Positions 30,127-64,000 of a DNA stretch of 64,000 bases are shown here, piece after piece. The position numbers and the translations under genes are program-made. Source of the DNA: Candidatus Onthousia faecavium (GTDB lineage: Bacteria; Bacillota_I; Bacilli_A; RF39; UBA660); assembly GCA_018711135.1 (NCBI GenBank), contig DVIS01000031.1, positions 17,840 to 81,839 on the forward strand, given 5' to 3'. The first letter of the stretch is position 1; each line of letters opens with the position of its first letter. The notes beneath the pieces were generated by a model that worked only from the letters and a program-made list of their open reading frames with translations, had not been told where the DNA came from and ran no database searches.

Positions 30127-31665
30127 TTACAAGTTATGCTCTGTCAAGAACTGTTCTTTATTTATTCGTTCAAATAACATTTCAGGCTCATTTAATTGAT
30201 ATTTATTAGTTTCAAGATACTTGCCATCTTTACGAGCAGTATTTAATTGTCTAAATATCTCTTCACTAGTATTATGAATAGCAAAATCAAAACTAACCGC
30301 ACAAACTCTAATCGCTTCTAACAAGTTATAGATTACTGTTTCTAGTCTCTCTTTGTTATTTTCGTCTTTCGCTAAAATCCAAGGCGTTGTCTCATCAATA
30401 TATTTATTACTAGCTCTTAAAACCTCAAATATAGCTTCAAGACTATTAGCAATTTCTAAATTATCCATTAAGGCTTCTATTTTTTCATCTAAAGCATTTA
30501 TTTTCTCAATAAAGTCATAATCTATATCTTCATATACTCTCTTATTTTCTATTTTACCATCAAAATACTTATTACCCATACTAATCGTCCTTTGAACAAG
30601 ATTACCAAGCGTATTAGCTAAATCATTATTAATGGTCTCAATAACCAATTCATAACTAATATTACCATCATTAGCATAAGGTATTTGTCTTAATAAGTAA
30701 TAACGTATCGCATCAACACCAAATAAATTAACTAATTGATCAGCATATATTACATTACCTTTACTTTTACTCATTTTATCGTTATTAGTTAATAACCATG
30801 GATGACCAAATATCTTCTTTGGTAATGGTAAGTCAAGAGCCATTAAAATTATAGGCCAATATATTGTATGAAAACGTAAAATATCTTTACCAATCAAATG
30901 CAAATCACAAGGCCATAACTCTTTAAATTTTTGACTTGACCCATCAGGATCATAACCAATAAACGTAATATAGTTAGTTAAAGCATCAATCCAAACATAA
31001 ATAACATGTTTAGGATCAAAAGTTACCGGAATACTCCATTTAAATGAGGTTCTTGTCACACACAAATCCTGTAAACCAGTTTTAAGAAAATTATTAATCA
31101 TTTCATTTTTTCTAGATACAGGTTGAATAAAATCAGGATGTTCCTCTATATATTTTAAAAGTCTATCTTGATACTTACTCATTCTAAAGAAATAAGCTTC
31201 TTCTTTTTGCTTCTCAACTGCTCTTCCACAATCAGGACATTTTCCATCTACAAGTTGACTATCGGTAAAATAAGCTTCACATGGCATACAATACCATCCC
31301 TCATAATAGTCTTTATAGATATCTCCTTGTTCATACAATTTATTAAAGATTTTCTGAACTATTTCTTCATGATGTTTATCTGTCGTTCTTACAAATGCAT
31401 CATAACTAGTATCCATTAAATCCCAAGTGTTTTTTATTTCTTTAGCTACTTTATCTACAAACTCTTGTGGTTCAATCCCCGCTTCTTTTGCTTTAGTTTC
31501 AATTTTTAAACCATGTTCATCTGTTCCTGTTTGAAAGTAAACATCATATCCTTTATTTCTCTTATATCTAGCAATCGCATCTGCTAAAACAACCTCATAA
31601 GTATTTCCAATATGTGGTTTTGCTGATGTATATGTTATCGCCGTCGTAATATAATATTTTGTCAT
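30127..31665 (-). CDS. metG: methionyl-tRNA synthetase (short form)
   Basis: HIGN (KPHIGNTYE) and KMSKS motifs, CPDCG zinc knuckle. Start placed at ATG 31665, which has an AGGAGG RBS. Confidence 0.9.
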   Translation of the reverse strand: MTKYYITTAITYTSAKPHIGNTYEVVLADAIARYKRNKGYDVYFQTGTDEHGLKIETKAKEAGIEPQEFVDKVAKEIKNTWDLMDTSYDAFVRTTDKHHEEIVQKIFNKLYEQGDIYKDYYEGWYCMPCEAYFTDSQLVDGKCPDCGRAVEKQKEEAYFFRMSKYQDRLLKYIEEHPDFIQPVSRKNEMINNFLKTGLQDLCVTRTSFKWSIPVTFDPKHVIYVWIDALTNYITFIGYDPDGSSQKFKELWPCDLHLIGKDILRFHTIYWPIILMALDLPLPKKIFGHPWLLTNNDKMSKSKGNVIYADQLVNLFGVDAIRYYLLRQIPYANDGNISYELVIETINNDLANTLGNLVQRTISMGNKYFDGKIENKRVYEDIDYDFIEKINALDEKIEALMDNLEIANSLEAIFEVLRASNKYIDETTPWILAKDENNKERLETVIYNLLEAIRVCAVSFDFAIHNTSEEIFRQLNTARKDGKYLETNKYQLNEPEMLFERINKEQFLTEHNL

Positions 31666-31699
31666 TTCTAATTCCTCCTTAACAAAACAAAAAATTATT

Positions 31700-31925
31700 G
31701 CAAACAAAGGACGAGTATTCCCGCGGTACCACCTTTTTTCACAATAATTTTGTGCCCTTTATTAATTAACGCTTAATAACGTCCATATTTACATATCAAT
31801 ATGAAAGTTCAAGAGCCATAATTTATAATTATCATCGCTTCATTTCCACCAACTAGAAGTCTCTCCAACTAAATAACTATAAACCTCTCCATCAAAACTT
31901 TTAATAACCAAATTTTACCATGATT
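31700..31925 (-). promoter_or_regulatory. T-box leader upstream of metG
   Basis: minus-strand AAAAAAGGUGGUACCGCGGG (plus 31720-31733 is CCCGCGGTACCACC) matches the conserved T-box sequence, 35-50 nt upstream of the metG RBS. Confidence 0.55.
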
Positions 31926-37221: not shown

Positions 37222-37241
37222 ATTATTTCCCGGGAAATAAT
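37222..37241. repeat. palindromic element ATTATTTCCCGGGAAATAAT (copy 6), overlapping the rsmI stop
   Basis: exact 20-bp palindrome; on the minus strand followed by TTTTTG; likely bidirectional terminator. Confidence 0.7.
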
Positions 37242-38074
37242 TATCTATTATTATCAAGATATTCTTTATAAACAATAGACTTAGGAATACCTCTTTCTTT
37301 AGCTACTAACTTAATCGCTTCATTTTTTGTATTACCATCTTCTATATAGAAATTAACATGATCAACGATACTCATACTATTAAAATTAAATTCTAATTTA
37401 GCACCTTCTACTACTATAACAAACTCTCCTTTTAATTCAAATTTGCTATCTAAAATTTCATTAATACTACCTCTAATCGCTTCTTCATATTTTTTAGAAA
37501 TTTCTCTAGCTAAACAAATTTTTCTATCGCCAAATATTTCTTTAATATTTAAAAGGGTAGCTAAAATACGATGTGGTGCTTCATAAAAAATAATTGTAAA
37601 AGGATAATTCTTTAAATTCGTTAACTCCTTTTTCCGTCTAGTCTCTTTTGCATTAAGAAAACCATAAAATAGAAAAGGTAAAGGTGATAATGTTGACATT
37701 GTAAGAGCAGGAACAAAAGCTGTAGGACCAGGCAAACTAATAATTTCATAACCCTTAGATACTATATAACTCGTTATTCTATATCCAGGATCACTAATTA
37801 AAGGTGTACCTTGATCAGTAACTAAACCTACATTAAAGCCCCCAACTAAATAAGATAAAACTCTATCTTTCATTTTCTCTTCGTTAAATTCATGACAACT
37901 AACTAATTTATTTTTAATATTGTATTTATCTAATAGCTTTTTCGTTTCTCTTGTATCTTCACAAAGAATTATATCAACAGTTTCTAGTACTTTTAAAGCT
38001 CTTATTGTAATATCATCTAAATTACCAAGTGGTGTTGGTATCAAATATAAACTAGGTCTATCTCTATCCATCAC
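37241..38074 (-). CDS. rsmI: 16S rRNA 2'-O-methyltransferase RsmI
   Basis: tetrapyrrole-methylase fold with LYLIPTPLGNLDDITIRALKVL N-terminus. Confidence 0.8.
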   Translation of the reverse strand: MMDRDRPSLYLIPTPLGNLDDITIRALKVLETVDIILCEDTRETKKLLDKYNIKNKLVSCHEFNEEKMKDRVLSYLVGGFNVGLVTDQGTPLISDPGYRITSYIVSKGYEIISLPGPTAFVPALTMSTLSPLPFLFYGFLNAKETRRKKELTNLKNYPFTIIFYEAPHRILATLLNIKEIFGDRKICLAREISKKYEEAIRGSINEILDSKFELKGEFVIVVEGAKLEFNFNSMSIVDHVNFYIEDGNTKNEAIKLVAKERGIPKSIVYKEYLDNNR

Positions 38075-38762
38075 AATCTTCCTTTCCTACCATTAACGGA
38101 GCCATTACTTTTAATCCCTGCTCTTTCCCATTTTTACGAGCTTCAAGTAAAAATAATTTAGCTGGCTTCTCCATATCATGATATATAAACTGTACTCTTT
38201 TAATCGCTAAACCATATTGTTTAAGCAAATCCCTTATCTCAAAAAATCTTTCAACTCTTTGAATTAAAAAAAGTCCTCCTCCATTTTTTAAAATCTTATT
38301 AGCATTACTAACTACATCTTCCATAGTTAACGATAAATCATGGCGAGCAATTTTTTTAGCATTTTTAGAACTTACCTGACTTTCATTTTCTAACGTAAAA
38401 TATGGAGGATTACAAACGACAATATCAACGCTATTTATCTCAAAGTATTCCCTTACATTTTGAACATAATCATTAATTAATGTTATTTTTTCCTCCAAGT
38501 TATTCTCTTTAATAGAATTTAATGCTAAAGAATATGCTTTTTTATCACATTCTATACCTACTATTTTAAGATTATAATCACTCATTAACAAAGGAATTAT
38601 TCCTAAACCGCACCCAAATTCTACTAAAGTTTTATCTTTAACAAGAACTCTTATAAATTTTACTAATGATAAATTATCAGTCGTAACTTTAAAATATTCA
38701 TCATCATAATAAAAAGTAATATCTTTACCATTGTAAGTATAAACTGTTTTCTTATTATTCAT
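38064..38762 (-). CDS. SAM-dependent methyltransferase (YabB/TrmN6-like)
   Basis: VEFGCGLGIIPL motif I and NPPYF motif IV. Confidence 0.6.
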   Translation of the reverse strand: MNNKKTVYTYNGKDITFYYDDEYFKVTTDNLSLVKFIRVLVKDKTLVEFGCGLGIIPLLMSDYNLKIVGIECDKKAYSLALNSIKENNLEEKITLINDYVQNVREYFEINSVDIVVCNPPYFTLENESQVSSKNAKKIARHDLSLTMEDVVSNANKILKNGGGLFLIQRVERFFEIRDLLKQYGLAIKRVQFIYHDMEKPAKLFLLEARKNGKEQGLKVMAPLMVGKEDCDG

Positions 38763-43771: not shown

Positions 43772-43850
43772 AAAAAAAGTGCACATAAATTAAATTTGTT
43801 AAGGCTGCTATGTTTCCATTCTGACCTGGTTCCAAACTAATTTATTGCAC
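43772..43850 (-). ncRNA. ffs: small (4.5S-type) signal recognition particle RNA
   Basis: minus-strand hairpin GUGCAAUAAAUUAG...ACCAGGUCAGAAUGGAAACAUAGCAGCC...UUAAUUUAUGUGCAC followed by a U7 tract. The apical region matches the SRP domain IV consensus (CCAGGUCAGG..GGAA..AGCAGCC). Located tadA-proximal as in Bacillus scr. Confidence 0.6.
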
Positions 43851-43856
43851 AAAAAA

Positions 43857-43885
43857 ATTATAGTACTTTTTCATTGTTTTTACAA
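43857..43885 (-). promoter_or_regulatory. sigma-A-like promoter of ffs
   Basis: minus-strand TTGTAA -35, 17-nt spacer, TATAAT -10, then 6 nt and the G at 43850. Confidence 0.45.
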
Positions 43886-43920
43886 GTACATATTAATAAA
43901 TTTAATCAAAAAACGCAAAA

Positions 43921-43940
43921 ATTATTTCCCGGGAAATAAT
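43921..43940. repeat. palindromic element ATTATTTCCCGGGAAATAAT (copy 1; extended AAAA...TTTT)
   Basis: exact match; flanked by A4/T4 so the palindrome extends to 28 bp; followed by a T-run on both strands. Confidence 0.75.
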
Positions 43941-44008
43941 TTTCTAGAAATTTTGCCAATAAAACTGGAATTTTATCGATACTTTTTGACATTGGATGAT
44001 GAATAAAA

Positions 44009-44024
44009 TGTTTCACGTGAAACA
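44009..44024. promoter_or_regulatory. palindrome TGTTTCACGTGAAACA (copy 1), candidate operator
   Basis: perfect 16-bp palindrome; reproduced at 44337 and, core only, at 44814. Confidence 0.3.
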
Positions 44025-44248
44025 TAACAATAATATATTTTCATACATTGCATTTTTCACAACGCCAACATCTTTCTTTACTAATTTTATAGTAATTCCT
44101 TTATATTGTACTTTGATTTTTTCTCCTAATACCTTTAAGATAAAGCGTTAGAAAGTTTTTATATACTCAATGTGTTTAAAGCTAAATTATAGTACTTTTT
44201 CATTTTTTTACAAGAACATATTAATAAATTCAATCAAAAAACGCAAAA

Positions 44249-44268
44249 ATTATTTCCCGGGAAATAAT
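44249..44268. repeat. palindromic element ATTATTTCCCGGGAAATAAT (copy 2)
   Basis: exact match with AAAA/TTTT flanks. Confidence 0.75.
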
Positions 44269-44336
44269 TTTCTGGAAATTTTGCCAGCAAAAGTGGGATT
44301 TTATCGATACTTCTTGACATTGGATGATGAATAAAG

Positions 44337-44352
44337 TGTTTCACGTGAAACA
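44337..44352. promoter_or_regulatory. palindrome TGTTTCACGTGAAACA (copy 2)
   Basis: exact match. Confidence 0.3.
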
Positions 44353-44505
44353 TAACAATAATAATATTATATTTTCGTAGTATTGTATTTTTCACAAGGC
44401 CACATTTTTCTCTACATTCCATACATAGTTTTTTTAAAATAAATAGTATATTTAATTAAAATTTAATAAAAAAATAAATGTGTTAAAAGTAATCTTAATT
44501 AATAA

Positions 44506-44525
44506 ATTATTTCCCGGGAAATAAT
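44506..44525. repeat. palindromic element ATTATTTCCCGGGAAATAAT (copy 3; extended AATAA...TTATT)
   Basis: exact core; flanks differ from copies 1 and 2 but stay palindromic. Confidence 0.75.
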
Positions 44526-44813
44526 TTATTAACAAAAAAAACATTTTTTAATTGATTCATATAAAATTAAAATAACTAAATCTCTTTTGTATTTTTACCA
44601 ATTAATAATTTAATTTATATTATATTCAGTAAAAAAAAGTATCTTTAAATAAATAAACTTATTTTTAAATATTATAGATTTTATAGAAAAATACGCACAT
44701 CCCTTACTTAACCACCATATGCTGTATTTACTTAATATACATAAAAATATCACTTGTATATTATTTGTAAAAGAAATTATACAACATCTATTTTTTATAT
44801 TACAGGAATTATA

Positions 44814-44827
44814 GTTTCACGTGAAAC
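44814..44827. promoter_or_regulatory. palindrome GTTTCACGTGAAAC (copy 3), next to a minus-strand promoter-like CTGTAA-18-TATAAT
   Basis: exact 14-bp core. Confidence 0.25.
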
Positions 44828-44963
44828 ATTTTCTACAATTTACATCATATTAGTAAACAAATTCACTATAAAATACCGCCAAAATAATTAATATTTTAAT
44901 ACAAACTCAACATAAGCTATTCAATTTGATTTAAGAAAAACAATAAACAATATAAAAAGGAGA

Positions 44964-44983
44964 ATTATTTCCCGGGAAATAAT
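44964..44983. repeat. palindromic element ATTATTTCCCGGGAAATAAT (copy 4; extended GAGA...TCTC)
   Basis: exact core with compensatory palindromic flanks. Confidence 0.75.
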
Positions 44984-45230
44984 TCTCTCTATTACAAAAC
45001 TAACTTAAATATTATCAACTGGCTTAAAACTCATATTTGTGTAATTTGTTTTTATATAAGACATAAATCACAAATATAATAATAAAATGACTAATAAAAA
45101 TAATATTATATTAAGCAATATGATACTATATATAGTTTTTTTCTTAAATAATTTATTTTTAAAAAAAACTATATAATCCACAGCATAGCTGGCGTCAAGA
45201 ATATTGATATTTTTCCAATTATTATGAAAT

Positions 45231-45274
45231 TTTTGCTCTCAAATTATTTCCCGGGAAATAATTTGAGAGCAAAA
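45231..45274. repeat. palindromic element copy 5: 44-bp perfect palindrome TTTTGCTCTCAAATTATTTCCCGGGAAATAATTTGAGAGCAAAA; likely gyrA terminator
   Basis: exact core 45243-45262 with 12-bp palindromic flanks, 16 bp downstream of the gyrA stop. Confidence 0.75.
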
Positions 45275-45289
45275 TATAAAAAGAAGAAC

Positions 45290-47740
45290 CTATTCAGTAG
45301 GCTCTTCCTCATTAATATTACCTTCTTTATCCACAATAGTAACAGTTGATACTTTCTGGTCGTCTTTTAAATGAATTAGTCTTACACCTTGTGTAGCACG
45401 TTTTAAAGTGGAAATTTGCTCTAAAGGCATTCTCATAATTATACCACTATCAGTAATTATCATAACATCCTTCAATTCTTCAGCATCTCTATCTATACAA
45501 TTTAAAGATATCATATTACCATTCTTTTCAGTTAAATTCAAAGCTTTTACACCCTTACTACCACGATGTGTTAAACGATATTCATTAATATCCGTCTTCT
45601 TACCATAACCATTTTCAGTAACAATAAGAATATTCTGATCATCATTAACAACATTAGCACCGACTACCATACTGCCATCTAATTCCATGCCTTTAACACC
45701 AGAACTGCCTCTACCCATAGCTCTTATCTCAGATTCAACAAAGCGTACCATTCTACCATTACTAGCACCGATTGTAATCTCATTCTCACCAGTGGTTTTA
45801 TCCACAGCAATTAACTCGTCGTTATCTTTAAGTATAATCGCTATTTTCCCACTCTTCCTAATATTATCAAATTCCTTAATTTCTGTACGTTTTACTAAAC
45901 CATTTTTAGTAACAAATAATAGATATTTATAGTTTTCCACAGCTGATTCAAGGCAAACTATCGAACTAATGTTTTCTCCGTTTTCTAAAGACAATAAATT
46001 AACCACTGGCAACCCTTTAGATTGACGATTATATTCAGGTATCTCATACCCTTTCAACCTATAAACCTTACCTTTATTTGAGAAAAATAAGATATAATCA
46101 TGTGATTTCATTGAAATTAAATGTTTTACAAAATCTTCCTCATTTGTACTCATTCCCTTAATTCCTACTCCACCACGATTCTGAACTTTATAAGTATCTG
46201 CTTTCATTCGTTTTATATAACCGTTATTAGTTAAAGTAACAATGATATCCTCTACCGGTATTAATGACTCATCTTCAATATACTCTATCGCTGTCATATC
46301 GATATTAGTACGTCTCTCATCACCATATTTAGCTTTAATTTCTAGCAATTCATCTTTAATAACACCTAATATCTTCTCATCACTACCTAAAATAGATTTT
46401 AACTCAGCAATTAATTTAAGTAATTCATCCAATTCATTTTCTATTTTTTCTCTTTCTAAGCCCGTTAAACGTCTTAATCTCATTTCCAAAATAGCATTTG
46501 CTTGAATTTCACTTAGACCAAATTTACTCATTAAACCACTTCTAGCCTCATCATCAGATTTAGAACCTCTGATTAACTTAATTACTTCATCAATATGATC
46601 TAAAGCTATCTTCAAACCTTCTAAAATATGAACTCTTTTCTCTGCATTATCCAAATCAAATTTTGTTCTTCTAATTATTATCTCTCTTTGAAAATCTATA
46701 TACTTTGCAATTATATCTTTAAGTCCCAATGTTTTAGGAACACCTTGATCTAGCATCAAGAAAATAATTCCATATGTTGTTTGAAACTGTGTATGCTTAT
46801 ACAATTTATTTAAAACAACCTGCGCATTAGCATCTTTCTTTAAGGTAATAGTAATTTTAATACCATCCTTTAAATCAGAATGATAATCAGAAATACCTTC
46901 AATTGTCTTATTATGAACTAACTCTGCAACCTTATTTTTTAATTCCAATGTATTAACACCATAAGGCACCTCATCAATTACAATACATTGTCTACCATGA
47001 CTTTCCTCAATTTGGGCCTTACTCCTAATAGTAACAGTACCTCGACCTGTCTCATAAGCTTTTCTAATTCCACTATTACCTAAAATAGAAGCTCCTGTTG
47101 GAAAATCTGGTCCTTTAATATATTTCATCAACCCAGCAACATCAATATCAGGATTATCTATATAAGCAACACATCCATCTATGACCTCACCTAAATTATG
47201 CGGAGGAATATTTGTTGCCATTCCAACTGCAATACCAGTTGTCCCATTAACTAAAATATTAGGAAATCTAGATGGTAAAACCTCAGGTTCTTTCGTTGTT
47301 TCATCAAAATTTGGAACAAAATTTACTGTATTTTTATTTATATTGCGCAATAATTCCAAAGATATCTTTGAAAGTCTAGACTCAGTATAACGCATGGCTG
47401 CTGCTCCATAACCTTCAATATTACCAAAATTACCATGGCCATCAATTAACATATAACGATATGAAAAATCTTGTGCCATTCTAACCATCGCTTCATAAAT
47501 AGAAGAATCTCCATGAGGATGGTAATTACCCATAACCTCACCTACTGTTTTTGCACTTTTCTTATGAGGTTTATCAGGAGTATAACCAGATTCATACATC
47601 GAATAAAGTATTCTTCTATGAACTGGTTTTAAACCATCTCGTAAATCAGGTAAAGCTCGAGCAACAATAACACTCATCGAATACTCTAAAAAAGAATCTT
47701 TTACCTCTTTTACTATATTATTCTGTTCTAATCTATCCAT
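45290..47740 (-). CDS. gyrA: DNA gyrase subunit A
   Basis: 816 aa; active-site region AAMRYTE; follows gyrB. Confidence 0.95.
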
Positions 47741-52654: not shown

Positions 52655-52748
52655 TTATGTGGAAAACTAAAAAATTCCTTTATATTATACCATATTTTTT
52701 TAATTTTAGCTGTGGAAAAAAAGTGAAAAACTAATTTTTATCCACAAC
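52655..52748. promoter_or_regulatory. DnaA-box cluster in the dnaA-dnaN spacer (oriC part 2) with an AT-rich tract
   Basis: TGTGGAAAA at 52658 and 52711; perfect TTATCCACA at 52738; AT-rich stretch 52621-52650. Confidence 0.6.
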
Positions 52749-54167: not shown

Positions 54168-54350
54168 AATTTGTGGAAAAGGAAATAGTAAAAATGAAAT
54201 TTTAAAGTTTCCACAATTTATCCACAATTTTGTCCACAACAAAAAACGACATATATCAACAAAAAGTCAAGTTTTCCACATTTTCCACAATTTTAAAATT
54301 CACAAGTTAATAAAACTTATCCACACCATGTGAAAACTGTGGATAATAAA
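54168..54350. promoter_or_regulatory. oriC part 1: DnaA-box cluster upstream of dnaA
   Basis: at least 8 boxes. Perfect TTATCCACA at 54218 and 54318; perfect inverse TGTGGATAA at 54338; variants TTTCCACA, TTGTCCACA, TTTTCCACA x2, TGTGGAAAA. Confidence 0.7.
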
Positions 54351-56765: not shown

Positions 56766-57554
56766 ATGTTAGGAAAAGAAGACATAATAAAAGAAAGAGA
56801 TGAGTTATCATTTTTAAAAGATATACTAGCTTACGAGGAGACTAAATTAAAATGTAGCCTTGATGAGCTTTCTAAATATAGCGAGGTTCAAAACTATATT
56901 TCATTATTAAAAAATATTAGAAGTTATCAAAAACAGGGAGTATATAAAGATCCCATTAAAGCTACTTATGAAGACAATTTAGATTTCTTAGTAGACTTTT
57001 ATAAAGAGGTTAAACTTTATAAAGAAACGGCTAAAACTTTAACAGATTATCAAAATTATAGTAAAAAACTAGAGACTTTTACCTCAACTGAAGAAGGTAT
57101 AATTTATAATGGTAAATCTGAAAAACCATGTAAAACTTATTCTATCTATGATTTATTAAATCACTTAATGACTTTAAAACAATCAAATTTTCAAACAACT
57201 CCGGAAGAATTGTCTAAATATAGAGATATTGTAGCAAGAAATATTACATCTAAAAAACATTATCAAGATGATGAAATAACAGAGACATTTCTAGGTACAA
57301 AAATATATCAAAACCCTGAAAATTATGCTGTTGAAGATATAGAAACCGGATTAGCTAAATTTCAAACAGGTAGTTCGACTTATAAATTTGAAAATGGTAT
57401 AATAAGTTTAGTATCTTTCAATGATTCTTTTATAAAGTCCAAGAGTTTAAGTCAAAGAGAAGAACATGCTTTTTATAGTGAAGAAGCATATGTTCTTTTA
57501 AAAATAGATAAGGATACGAAAATTAAGAAAATAGGAGTAAAGAAACATGAATGA
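56766..57554 (+). CDS. hypothetical protein inserted between jag and mnmE
   Basis: 262-aa ORF with no recognised motif; overlaps the mnmE start by 8 nt. Confidence 0.4.
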   Translation: MLGKEDIIKERDELSFLKDILAYEETKLKCSLDELSKYSEVQNYISLLKNIRSYQKQGVYKDPIKATYEDNLDFLVDFYKEVKLYKETAKTLTDYQNYSKKLETFTSTEEGIIYNGKSEKPCKTYSIYDLLNHLMTLKQSNFQTTPEELSKYRDIVARNITSKKHYQDDEITETFLGTKIYQNPENYAVEDIETGLAKFQTGSSTYKFENGIISLVSFNDSFIKSKSLSQREEHAFYSEEAYVLLKIDKDTKIKKIGVKKHE

Positions 57555-61491: not shown

Positions 61492-62880
61492 ATGGATAAT
61501 CGTGAAAACGAAGTTGTATATTTACATTTAGATGATATAATTCCAAATAGATTTCAACCACGACAAGTCTTTGATGAAAAAGCCTTAAAAGAGCTAGCAG
61601 TCTCAATCAAAGAACATGGTGTCATTCAACCAATTATTGTTAGAAATATTGGTAATAAATATGAAATAATTGCTGGAGAACGCCGTTATAAAGCCTCTGC
61701 TATGGCTGGACTTACTACTATTCCTGCTATTATTAGAAACCTAGATGATAAAGAAAGCAGTAAAGTTGCTTTATTAGAAAACTTACAACGAAAGAATTTA
61801 AATCCTATAGAAGAGGCTAAAACCTATCAAAAAATACTAGAGTTAGATCAAATGACTCAAGAAGAACTAGCTAAAACTATGGGAAAAAGTCAAAGTGCTG
61901 TTGCTAACAAACTAAGACTTTTAGCTTTAACTCCAGAAGTTCAAGATGCCCTTTTAAAAGAACAAATTTCTGAGCGCCATGCTAGGGCTCTATTGAACGC
62001 TCCTGATCCTGATACTCAGAAAGCCCTTTTAAAAGAGGTTATAGCTAATAAAATGACAGTAAGAGAACTAGAAGAAAAGATTTCTCCTAAGAAAAGCTCT
62101 GAAATAACAAGTGAAGATTTAAATAACATTTTAAACCCAGCACCTATTAATATTAATTCTAATAGTACACCTAATCTTATCAAAAACAGTAGTCCTAATA
62201 ATGATTTTAATCAAAATGTGGGTATAGATTATTCAACGCCACCAAAGTTTATTGATTATGGTATTCCAAATGTTGGTGGCTCTTTACAAAGTACTGCTGA
62301 TAAACCAATAGACATTAATGAATTAAAACAAGAAGCAAAAGATATAAATATTGAACAACCAAAACCAAATATGGATACCTTCTTGCAAGTTGGTCCTAAA
62401 GATAACACTCCAAAAGAAAAAGAAAATTCTAACTTTAAATTTTTTTCTCCATTTGAAGATAATCATGAAGAAAAAAAAGAAGAAACTGATTCTAAATCTT
62501 TAGAGAATGCTTTTGATAATTTAAGTCCTTTTAGCCTAGGAGGAGAAACAAAACCTTTAGAAGATACTACCAGTACCTCTATGGATAATCTTTTAGCAGG
62601 AGTTGAAAATAAACAAGATCAACCTTCTCCTAATCCTCCATCTTTTGATGCTTTCAATAATCCTTTCGCTAAAAATCCTATTTTTCAAGATAATGTTCAA
62701 TCTTTAACAACAAGTCAAGTAAACAAACCTAAATATACCTTAAACGAATCCATTAATATTGTAAGAGATAGTGTTAAAAAAATAGAAGAAAGTGGTTTCA
62801 AAGTAGATGTAGAAGAGATGGATTTTGCTAGTAACTATCAAATTGTAATTAAAATCTCTAAAGAAAATAACCCTAACTAA
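61492..62880 (+). CDS. noc: Noc/ParB-like nucleoid occlusion protein with a long low-complexity insertion
   Basis: ParB N-domain (IIPNRFQPR, IIAGERRY), HTH (KSQSAVANKLRLL), Noc-like C-terminal dimerisation segment. About 200-aa N/P/S/D-rich linker. Positioned rsmG-noc-parA-parB as in Bacillus. Confidence 0.65.
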   Translation: MDNRENEVVYLHLDDIIPNRFQPRQVFDEKALKELAVSIKEHGVIQPIIVRNIGNKYEIIAGERRYKASAMAGLTTIPAIIRNLDDKESSKVALLENLQRKNLNPIEEAKTYQKILELDQMTQEELAKTMGKSQSAVANKLRLLALTPEVQDALLKEQISERHARALLNAPDPDTQKALLKEVIANKMTVRELEEKISPKKSSEITSEDLNNILNPAPININSNSTPNLIKNSSPNNDFNQNVGIDYSTPPKFIDYGIPNVGGSLQSTADKPIDINELKQEAKDINIEQPKPNMDTFLQVGPKDNTPKEKENSNFKFFSPFEDNHEEKKEETDSKSLENAFDNLSPFSLGGETKPLEDTTSTSMDNLLAGVENKQDQPSPNPPSFDAFNNPFAKNPIFQDNVQSLTTSQVNKPKYTLNESINIVRDSVKKIEESGFKVDVEEMDFASNYQIVIKISKENNPN

Positions 62881-62977
62881 AAGTAGATTGAATCTACTTT
62901 TTTTTCCTAAAATAGTTTTCATAATCCCTAATTTTTGATACAATAATTAAGACTAATAAAAGAAGAGAGTGATAAAA

Positions 62978-63766
62978 ATGGCAAAGGTAATTTCTTTAGT
63001 AAATCAAAAAGGTGGAGTAGGAAAGACCACAACAAGTATTAACCTTTCTGCCTCTTTAGCATTCCTTGGCAAAAAAGTATTATTAATTGACCTAGATCCA
63101 CAAGGTAATACTACAACAGGAGTAGGTATTAATAAAGCAGATATAAATTTAAGTATCTATGATGTTTTAACCAATAAATGTAGTACTAAAGAAGCAATGA
63201 TAAAAACTAAGTATAAGAAATTGTATGTTTTACCAGCAACTATTAATTTAGCTGGTTTAGATATTGAACTATTAGAAAAAAGTCAAAGTGAAAAAGGCTT
63301 CGCTAAAGGAGCTCAATTGAAATATCATCTTGAAGAACTAAGTGATGAAAACTTTGATTTTATAATTATAGACTGTCCACCTTCCTTAGGACTAATTACC
63401 ACAAATGCTTTAACAGCAAGTGATTCTGTTATTATACCTGTTCAATGTGAATTTTTCGCCTTAGAAGGAATAATGCAATTACTTAATACGATAAGACTAG
63501 CTCAAAAACAATTAAATCCTAATCTAGATATTGAAGGAGTACTTCTAACTATGCTTGATTCAAGAACAAATCTTGGTTTTGAAGTTGTAGATGACATTAG
63601 AAAATTCTTTAAAGAAAAAGTATATAATACCATCATTCCAAGACTAATTAGATTAACAGAAGCTCCTTCTCATGGAGAGCCTATAATAGTTTATGATCCT
63701 AAAAGTAAAGGTTCAGAAGCCTATTTAAATTTAGCAAAGGAAGTGATTGATCGTAATGGAAAATAA
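62978..63766 (+). CDS. parA: chromosome partitioning ATPase ParA/Soj
   Basis: deviant Walker A KGGVGKTT; start ATG 62978 has a GAGAG RBS. Confidence 0.85.
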   Translation: MAKVISLVNQKGGVGKTTTSINLSASLAFLGKKVLLIDLDPQGNTTTGVGINKADINLSIYDVLTNKCSTKEAMIKTKYKKLYVLPATINLAGLDIELLEKSQSEKGFAKGAQLKYHLEELSDENFDFIIIDCPPSLGLITTNALTASDSVIIPVQCEFFALEGIMQLLNTIRLAQKQLNPNLDIEGVLLTMLDSRTNLGFEVVDDIRKFFKEKVYNTIIPRLIRLTEAPSHGEPIIVYDPKSKGSEAYLNLAKEVIDRNGK

Positions 63767-64000
63767 AAGAAAAGCCCTAGGTAGAGGGTTAGAAGAACTA
63801 TTTAGTAGTGAACCATTAGATATAGCTAAAGTGGAAGAAGAAATAATCAATAATACTCCTAAAGAACAAATTACAGAGATTAATCTTGATGAATTGAGAA
63901 GTAATCCCTATCAACCTAGAAAAAACTTTGATGAAGAAAGTTTACAAGAACTAGCTTCATCTATTAAGACTTATGGTGTTTTTCAACCCATTATTGCTAA
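63756..64000 (+). CDS. parB: chromosome partitioning protein ParB/Spo0J (5' partial; continues beyond the window)
   Basis: MENKRKALGRGLEELF...LRSNPYQPRKNFDEESLQELASSIKTYGVFQPIIA ParB N-terminus; overlaps the parA stop. Confidence 0.75.
   Translation, partial: MENKRKALGRGLEELFSSEPLDIAKVEEEIINNTPKEQITEINLDELRSNPYQPRKNFDEESLQELASSIKTYGVFQPIIA

Follow-up and report, generated by a model that had tools for sequence, protein, structure and literature searches.

The system formed by the protein Noc and its Noc-binding sites (NBS) was reportedly described by Wu et al. in 2009. About 70 NBS are scattered over most of the chromosome in Bacillus subtilis (Adams 2015), and 41 lie across the origin-proximal half in Staphylococcus aureus (Pang 2017). 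The NBS consensus is TATTTCCC-GGGAAATA and the parS consensus, TGTTTCAC-GTGAAACA, differs from it at two positions per half-site (Jalal et al. 2020, PMC7383237). A functional analogue is found in Escherichia coli, where SlmA and its SlmA-binding sites (SBS) form a system of palindromic nucleoid-occlusion sites away from the terminus; the protein, of the TetR family, and the site sequence are unrelated. Here we describe a 20-bp palindrome, ATTATTTCCCGGGAAATAAT, in a stretch of 64,000 nucleotides from Candidatus Onthousia faecavium (contig DVIS01000031.1, positions 17,840 to 81,839; hereafter the window). Its central 16 bp, TATTTCCCGGGAAATA, are those of the NBS of B. subtilis and S. aureus, and its sites are likewise origin-proximal (Pang et al. 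2017; Jalal et al. 2020, 2021). From sequence comparison we conclude that these palindromes are very probably Noc-binding sites read by a Noc-like paralogue of ParB, which is encoded in the same window.

Palindromes between gyrA and ffs

Six exact copies of ATTATTTCCCGGGAAATAAT had been reported in the preliminary description of the window, five in the spacer between gyrA and ffs and one at the rsmI stop, and these counts were confirmed. The copies start at 37222, 43921, 44249, 44506, 44964, and 45243, against an expectation of 0.01 copies in dinucleotide-preserving shuffles of the window, and no additional copy was found in the whole 64 kb when up to three mismatches were allowed. All six match the published NBS consensus at 16 of 16 positions, and each belongs to the 14-16 bp NBS consensus tATTTCCCGGGAAATa.

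A second palindrome, GTTTCACGTGAAAC, had been overlooked. It occurs three times in the spacer (at 44010, 44338, and 44814), and when it is widened to 16 bp two of the three copies are the exact parS consensus TGTTTCACGTGAAACA and the third has one mismatch. ATTATTTCCCGGGAAATAAT is not itself a parS site, since two positions differ in each half-site. No further parS-like site was found elsewhere in the 64 kb at up to three mismatches, and the spacer, with the only parS-like sites of the window, therefore looks like a local centromere. Read along the minus strand, the order is gyrA stop, NBS, NBS, parS, NBS, parS, NBS, parS, NBS, ffs, all within the 1,433 bp between the gyrA stop and ffs. The features are as follows.

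37222-37241: NBS copy 1, exact match (16-bp consensus at 37224-37239), abutting the stop of rsmI (TIGR00096, 242 bits) and upstream of pth
43773-43856, minus strand: ffs, the small signal recognition particle RNA (Rfam RF00169, 52.5 bits), lower boundary of the spacer
43868-44035 and 44196-44363 (span 43868-44363): direct repeat D1, two 168-nt copies, 92% identical
43921-43940: NBS copy 2, exact match, 65 bp upstream of the ffs 5' end, within D1
44009-44024: parS site 1, exact consensus TGTTTCACGTGAAACA
44249-44268: NBS copy 3, exact match, within the second D1 copy
44337-44352: parS site 2, exact consensus TGTTTCACGTGAAACA
44506-44525: NBS copy 4, exact match, the palindrome running 7 bp further on each side
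44813-44828: parS site 3, AGTTTCACGTGAAACA, one mismatch to the consensus
44964-44983: NBS copy 5, flanks GAGA/TCTC, terminator-like on the minus strand
45231-45274 (core 45243-45262): NBS copy 6, inside a 44-bp perfect palindrome, -25.4 kcal/mol
45290-47740, minus strand: gyrA (Pfam DNA_topoisoIV and gyrase C-terminal domain), upper boundary of the spacer

The direct repeat D1 had also been overlooked. The copies at 43921 and 44249 are not independent because both lie in it. Each D1 copy holds one NBS, one parS site, and one promoter-like site of the form TTGTAA-N16/17-TATAAT, and the duplication includes the promoter-like site of ffs. From the second copy of this promoter (44213-44186, minus strand), transcription would yield about 270 nt of RNA up to the 43921 palindrome, a stretch in which neither an Rfam match nor a long open reading frame (ORF) was found.

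Besides ffs, no RNA family was detected in the spacer, either by a search of the window at Rfam gathering thresholds or by an E-value search of the spacer. Sub-threshold Rfam matches at 45205-45324 were rejected as unspecific hits on the hairpin of the 44-bp palindrome. An inverted repeat of A and T only (45129-45175) separates NBS copies 5 and 6, with 23-nt arms that are 87% complementary and a 1-nt loop.

A Noc-like protein encoded beside parA and parB

About 17 kb from the spacer sites the window encodes a ParB-family paralogue and the canonical partition genes.

61492-62880, plus strand: Noc-like ParB paralogue, 462 aa, the predicted NBS-binding protein, between rsmG and parA-parB
62969-63766, plus strand: parA/soj (Pfam AAA_31/CbiA/ParA)
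63756-64000, plus strand: 5' part of parB/spo0J, cut by the window end, N-terminus MENKRKALGRGLEELF

The position of the paralogue between rsmG (gidB) and parA-parB is one of several features shared with the Noc system. In B. subtilis the order is gidB-noc-soj-spo0J, which is the same arrangement, and the order rsmG, ParB paralogue, parA, parB also recurs in two relatives (L121 and L122). Among solved structures the best matches of the 462-aa protein are to Noc (7NG0, 7NFU, and 7OL9, E = 4e-61 to 3e-53), and structures of ParB/Spo0J rank behind them (E about 4e-51). Of the NCBIfam models, TIGR04285, nucleoid_noc, fits it best (293.8 bits); on this model the true ParB of a relative scores 237.1 bits, 57 bits lower. 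Public annotations of the homologues call them, generically, ParB/RepB/Spo0J family partition proteins.

Four positions set the specificity of these proteins; Noc has QKKR there, and Caulobacter ParB has RTAG. Q173 recognises adenine 1, R201 recognises cytosine 6, and one lysine at either 179 or 184 is enough (Jalal et al. 2020, PMC7383237). The last statement is from the main text of that paper, whose deep-mutational-scan supplement does not have QKAR by name. In the 462-aa protein, whose recognition region begins GKSQS, the four positions are Q173, K179, A184, and R201, so that the glutamine, a lysine at 179 or 184, and the arginine of a Noc-type paralogue are all in place. The Pfam domains are ParB_N and HTH_ParB, and the GERR and ENLQR motifs for binding cytidine triphosphate (CTP) align with the Noc structures. 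The ParA-binding motif LG[KR]GL, which Noc lacks, is absent from the protein as well. Its C-terminal domain aligns with the C-terminus of B. subtilis Noc. The protein has the domain set of Noc, that is, a CTP-binding N-terminal domain, a helix-turn-helix (HTH) domain, a C-terminal dimerisation domain, and no ParA-binding motif.

The partner gene is of the other kind. The N-terminus of ParB in the window, MENKRKALGRGLEELF, contains the ParA-binding motif as LGRGL, and the full-length ParB orthologue of the relative L121, which reads GKSRS...MGHAR, has R173 and G201, the parS type. As in other ParB-parS centromeres, there are origin-proximal 16-bp sites, exact parS within about 10 kb of oriC, a parA-parB operon, the LG[KR]GL motif, and R173/G201, the last pair taken from the L121 orthologue. 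The window is predicted from these residues to encode one protein for each type of palindrome, because a Q..R paralogue (NBS type) stands beside a ParB whose orthologue is R..G (parS type).

A linker of about 215 aa, of low complexity, lies between the DNA-binding and C-terminal domains of the Noc-like protein and contains the conserved short motifs GIDYSTPPKFIDY, FKFFSP, TSTSMDNLL, and FNNPFAxNPIF. The architecture, in which the N-terminal helix is missing and the linker leads to a C-terminal domain like that of Noc, is common to 10 aligned homologues and to the best 120 database matches, which measure 452-519 aa. The nearest relatives are about 80% identical to the window at gyrA/gyrB and 95% identical in the Noc-like protein (P0001). 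An AlphaFold2 model was poor overall, with a mean predicted local distance difference test (pLDDT) score of 56.5, and was used solely for the distinction between a linker that it gives as mostly disordered and the folded DNA-binding domain (pLDDT 75-81) and C-terminal domain (72-83, a helix and two strands). The FKFF of the linker motif is faintly like the FSRFFGL of the B. subtilis Noc membrane helix, an impression only.

Conservation of the sites downstream of gyrA

That the core is more abundant than chance would allow was borne out by a pattern search of a genome collection (596 Gb), in which at least 120 stretches from the genomes of other species carry the exact 20-mer where about 0.5 would be expected. 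The same 20-mer occurs across genera and at orthologous positions in different species. The listed stretches come nearly all from uncultured low-GC Bacilli, gut metagenome-assembled genomes labelled "Tenericutes" or "Mycoplasmatota", with Listeria and Planococcus in addition. Fifty-six listed loci include the 3' end of gyrA, at identities to a GyrA C-terminal probe (the last 259 residues) from 84% down to about 43-55%, and the NBS sequence is unchanged even where this region is only about 50-60% identical. Within 1.5 kb downstream of gyrA, these loci and the window have parS in 52 of 57 cases, NBS in 43 of 57, and both in 39 of 57. An unbiased count of 11-mers over the gyrA-downstream spacers put parS and NBS words at the top, with ffs words next and lower.

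The parS sites had not been a search criterion, and the 120 listed loci contain 232 of them at up to one mismatch, against none in shuffles; a parS site lies within 150 bp of 38% of the NBS. Sites of the form TNTTTCNCGNGAAANA in the same loci and the window comprise 238 NBS, 152 parS, and 1 other, with no hybrid half-sites. Two site classes without hybrids are what one would expect of two proteins, each of a distinct specificity and with base-specific read-out. Among 184 unique copies from about 120 loci, the positions one and two outside the 20-mer are conserved as AA...TT, which gives a 24-bp motif, AAATTATTTCCCGGGAAATAATTT. For 16-mer sites outside the ascertainment, the full 20-mer is present in 59% and the full 24-mer in 46%. 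A motif conserved over 24 bp sets these sites apart from those of B. subtilis and S. aureus.

In several species the two sites form arrays. Regular arrays in which NBS and parS alternate lie downstream of gyrA. Their units are of 126 bp in L004 (2263-3018; six NBS, with parS in most units), L063 (1117-1640; four NBS), and L114 (6741-7097; three NBS), of about 136 bp in L068 (88-380), and of about 160 bp in L012 (1146-1815). The units are near-identical within a species and share little between species beyond the NBS and parS motifs. No fixed spacing of NBS and parS was found across species; it is species-specific, the filled bins being 20-39, 50-69, and 180-199 bp, and a rigid composite NBS-parS operator is therefore unlikely.

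These sites lie close to the origin. Left of about 54 kb in the window every long ORF is on the minus strand, right of it on the plus strand, and the sign of the GC skew switches between 52 and 56 kb. The skew switch and two clusters of DnaA boxes place oriC in the window, about 9 kb from the spacer.

54172-54346: cluster of DnaA boxes upstream of dnaA (oriC), TTATCCACA, exact or with one mismatch
52658-52746: second cluster of DnaA boxes, downstream of dnaA, TTATCCACA, exact or with one mismatch

Genes of the origin region of the window are matched by 107 of the 120 listed loci. The 232 exact NBS in the listed loci include 112 in the spacer between tadA/ffs and gyrA, 26 inside dnaX, 15 inside a methyltransferase gene, and 7 at the rsmI/pth junction; 215 of the 232 adjoin origin-region genes, and 17 have none within 2.5 kb. 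The window homologues of dnaX and of the methyltransferase gene (38064-38762) contain no NBS-like site. The NBS at the rsmI stop is found at the same position in L028, L083, and L040, where the sequence on the pth side diverges. One relative has neither NBS nor parS in 21 kb around parB, from dnaN through noc-parAB to rpsR. The exact-consensus NBS of this clade are therefore concentrated beside oriC and not scattered. Unlike in the described Noc systems, the exact sites are packed into one spacer and about 20 kb of surroundings, often as arrays alternating with parS, and unlike in the usual ParB-parS systems, parS lies in a spacer downstream of gyrA, interleaved with the sites of the paralogue.

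Some listed contigs bear Bacteroidota labels (Muribaculaceae for L015, L017, L018, L020, L035, and L036; Bacteroides helcogenes for L039). L015, L035, and L039 have 72-78% nucleotide identity to the window at gyrA/gyrB together with the same NBS/parS spacer, and L018 and L020 match the 3' end of gyrA at the protein level with about 56% identity; these contigs are probably mis-binned or mislabelled. L017 and L036 gave no gyrA match and have only the Muribaculaceae label in common with the others.

Alternative readings and the possible role of the spacer

Several points weigh against Noc-binding sites read by a Noc-like protein. The protein itself is not a textbook Noc, because it scores below the family cut-off, has A, S, or T at position 184, and lacks the N-terminal amphipathic helix. 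Its 293.8 bits fall short of the curated TIGR04285 cut-off of 315, which we attribute to the linker that separates the C-terminal domain from the rest. Position 184 is A, S, or T and not K in the Noc-like proteins. In 10 of 10 aligned homologues the protein starts 22 residues past the N-terminus of B. subtilis Noc, so that the amphipathic helix is absent, and this choice of start codon is backed by the AGAGGGG ribosome-binding site before it, together with upstream stops in frame. In B. subtilis Noc the N-terminal motif is highly conserved, the NocNdelta10 variant is non-functional, and CTP controls membrane binding via the N-terminal helix. On the side of the sites, the comparative set (at least 120 stretches) was ascertained with the 20-mer itself and its frequencies are not genome-wide estimates, and copies within one array are recent duplicates and not independent. 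Finally, concentration at the origin, against about 70 scattered sites in B. subtilis, weakens the inference of classical nucleoid occlusion.

An additional use of some sites would be compatible with their being Noc-binding sites. The extended copies at 45231-45274, 44960-44987, 43917-43944, and 44245-44272 might also terminate transcription or block read-through from gyrA, which we consider somewhat unlikely. With their flanks they form hairpins of -11 to -25 kcal/mol, a terminator scan picks 44987-44960 on the minus strand, and long extensions are over-represented in the family. The copy at 44964 with its flanks reaches about -15 kcal/mol and is followed by CTTTTTAT, and the copies at 43921 and 44249 are followed on the minus strand by TTTTTGCGTTTTTTG. 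A few copies in the window (44964, 43921/44249, and 45243) may thus be terminators through their particular flanks, not as a trait of the family. Against such a use, relatives do not keep the extensions at their orthologous first site after gyrA, where most have only the 24-bp motif, and no T-tract follows the 44-bp palindrome on either strand. The gyrA gene needs no palindrome for termination because it has a terminator-like hairpin of its own (45310-45280, minus strand; 13 pairs, 4 of them G-C, then TTATATTTTG), which overlaps the gyrA stop codon and lies immediately upstream of the 44-bp palindrome.

It is very improbable that the palindrome is the operator of another dimeric protein, for example a transcription factor for ffs and its neighbours, and resembles an NBS by coincidence or convergence. 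Two copies do lie just upstream of TTGTAA-N16/17-TATAAT promoter-like sites, one of them the ffs promoter, and the Noc-like protein is atypical. A 16 of 16 match to the NBS stands, however, in the same window as a paralogue with Q173, K179, and R201, the sites cluster with parS in about 40 species, and many copies are in genes or in arrays without promoter context. The same 20-mer is also found in Listeria and Planococcus, in whose loci a noc gene was not looked for; both genera are expected to carry canonical Noc.

The preliminary description had favoured a dispersed family, like the repetitive extragenic palindromic (REP) or BOX elements, selected for its hairpin and acting as bidirectional intrinsic terminators. 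We judge this highly improbable. The palindrome is short, multi-copy, and mostly intergenic, as are REP and BOX elements: 71% of copies are intergenic while only 12% of the sequence is non-coding. The flank-dependent hairpins in the window are good (-25.4 kcal/mol at 45243, and those given above for 44964 and for 43921/44249 with its TTTTTGCGTTTTTTG), and the mirrored flanks that had been listed (AAAA/TTTT, AATAA/TTATT, GAGA/TCTC, and the 44-bp perfect palindrome) are all present at individual copies. The AATAA/TTATT pair is really 7 bp long, TTAATAA/TTATTAA, and the 44-bp palindrome starts 15 nt past the gyrA stop.

As properties of the family, assessed on the 184 unique copies, the claims did not hold. 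Selection on a hairpin through compensatory flanks was not supported, as the mirrored complementarity from position 4 outward is 0.26-0.35 against 0.28-0.34 expected from composition. Flank extensions of at least 6 bp were found in 6% of copies (0.8% expected), so a minority sits in longer palindromes, a point in favour of the hairpin. What the family conserves is therefore sequence and not structure. RNA folding gave the core a hairpin of only -3.5 kcal/mol, its stem being almost all A-U with a single closing G-C pair, which speaks against terminators in both directions. Bracketing by A-runs and T-runs is no family trait either, since the 8 nt that follow the palindrome contain at least five T in 13-21% of copies, the background being 16-17%, and T-tracts flank both ends in 1.6%. 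A check set beforehand, enrichment at the ends of convergent genes, gave the background level (5 of 111 classifiable intergenic copies), and the terminator reading fails on it.

An extragenic family is contradicted by the 29% of copies that are intragenic, with recurrent spots inside dnaX and the methyltransferase gene. Unlike in species-specific REP families, the core is invariant across distant genera; there is no covariation of the flanks or species-specific structure, and no transposase of the REP-associated tyrosine transposase (RAYT) type was seen. The marks of an intrinsic terminator (stable G+C-rich stem, U-tract, 3' ends) belong to single copies and not to the family, in which arrays of 4-6 tandem copies would make no sense as terminators, the more so as gyrA has its own hairpin. 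The palindrome itself is the known textbook NBS, and its annotation as a REP element or a terminator would be a mistake. A closing remark in the preliminary description, that it might double as a binding site for a dimeric protein, is the correct reading.

Hardly credible at all is a structural DNA element (cruciform, recombination site, or mobile element) multiplying through duplication without a sequence-specific protein partner, since the perfect palindromes, the similar tandem units within species, and the 168-nt duplication in the window are outweighed by units that differ between species except in NBS and parS, positions conserved across species, two site classes without hybrids that imply base-specific read-out, and the lack of a transposase nearby in the window. 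A mobile or phage origin was also rejected, with only 4 single matches in 2.9 million IMG/VR viral contigs, all in unrelated GC contexts.

With the palindromes taken as Noc-binding sites, a dimer of the Noc-like paralogue would bind an NBS as its nucleation or loading site, with one half-site TATTTCCC for each HTH. If the dimer behaves like B. subtilis Noc, it would next form a clamp that depends on CTP and spread to adjacent DNA. Canonical ParB would load at the three interleaved parS sites and, as homology and the GERR and ENLQR motifs suggest, would also form a clamp and spread. The two types of site could in this way make up a compound origin-proximal platform for two paralogous clamps, with two overlapping nucleoprotein domains. 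Binding, CTP-dependent spreading, and the downstream role are what we infer. Classical membrane-tethered nucleoid occlusion is uncertain, because the N-terminal membrane-targeting helix is absent and the sites are focused on the origin; organisation or segregation of the origin region, or the timing of division, is equally possible. Tentatively, we propose that in a large clade of uncultured gut Bacilli of low GC content the gyrA-downstream spacer might be a compound centromere, a tandemly amplified module of alternating parS and NBS that is the main and possibly the only strong loading platform for ParB and a Noc derivative. Having lost the membrane helix and gained the linker, the derivative would have been repurposed from membrane-tethered occlusion over the whole chromosome to a task at the origin, for example to position it, to form condensates, or to link its segregation with division or replication.

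What is known of Noc comes from two model species, whose NBS are scattered and whose Noc has to bind the membrane by its N-terminus. By contrast, dozens of uncultured species here have NBS beside oriC, interleaved with parS, and a cognate protein without a membrane helix but with a disordered linker bearing conserved motifs. A search under the label "RF39" found, among the papers that it covered, none linking the clade with Noc, ParB, or parS. The parS/NBS arrays downstream of gyrA, the concentration of NBS at oriC, and the helix-less Noc derivative with its long linker appear to form an undescribed variant of the ParB/Noc system. If so, nature would offer here a case of ParB and Noc clamps loading next to each other, which would inform how the two paralogues keep apart or make use of one another, what role Noc had before or since it acquired membrane binding, and how the origin is organised in Bacilli with reduced genomes. 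The pair of parS and NBS downstream of gyrA would also serve as a simple signature for the location of the centromere in such metagenome-assembled genomes.

On the plus strand of the window the gene order is yidC, jag, an ORF without assignment, mnmE, mnmG, rsmG, the 462-aa ParB-family protein, parA, and the start of parB. The ORF between jag and mnmE (56766-57554, plus strand) encodes 262 aa and matches nothing in Pfam or NCBIfam. In L121 (4940-5671) the corresponding position holds an ORF of 243 aa, comparable in size and likewise without a Pfam match. Elsewhere in the window, a T-box leader (31704-31904, minus strand; Rfam RF00230, 99.2 bits) lies upstream of a 526-aa ORF (30127-31707).

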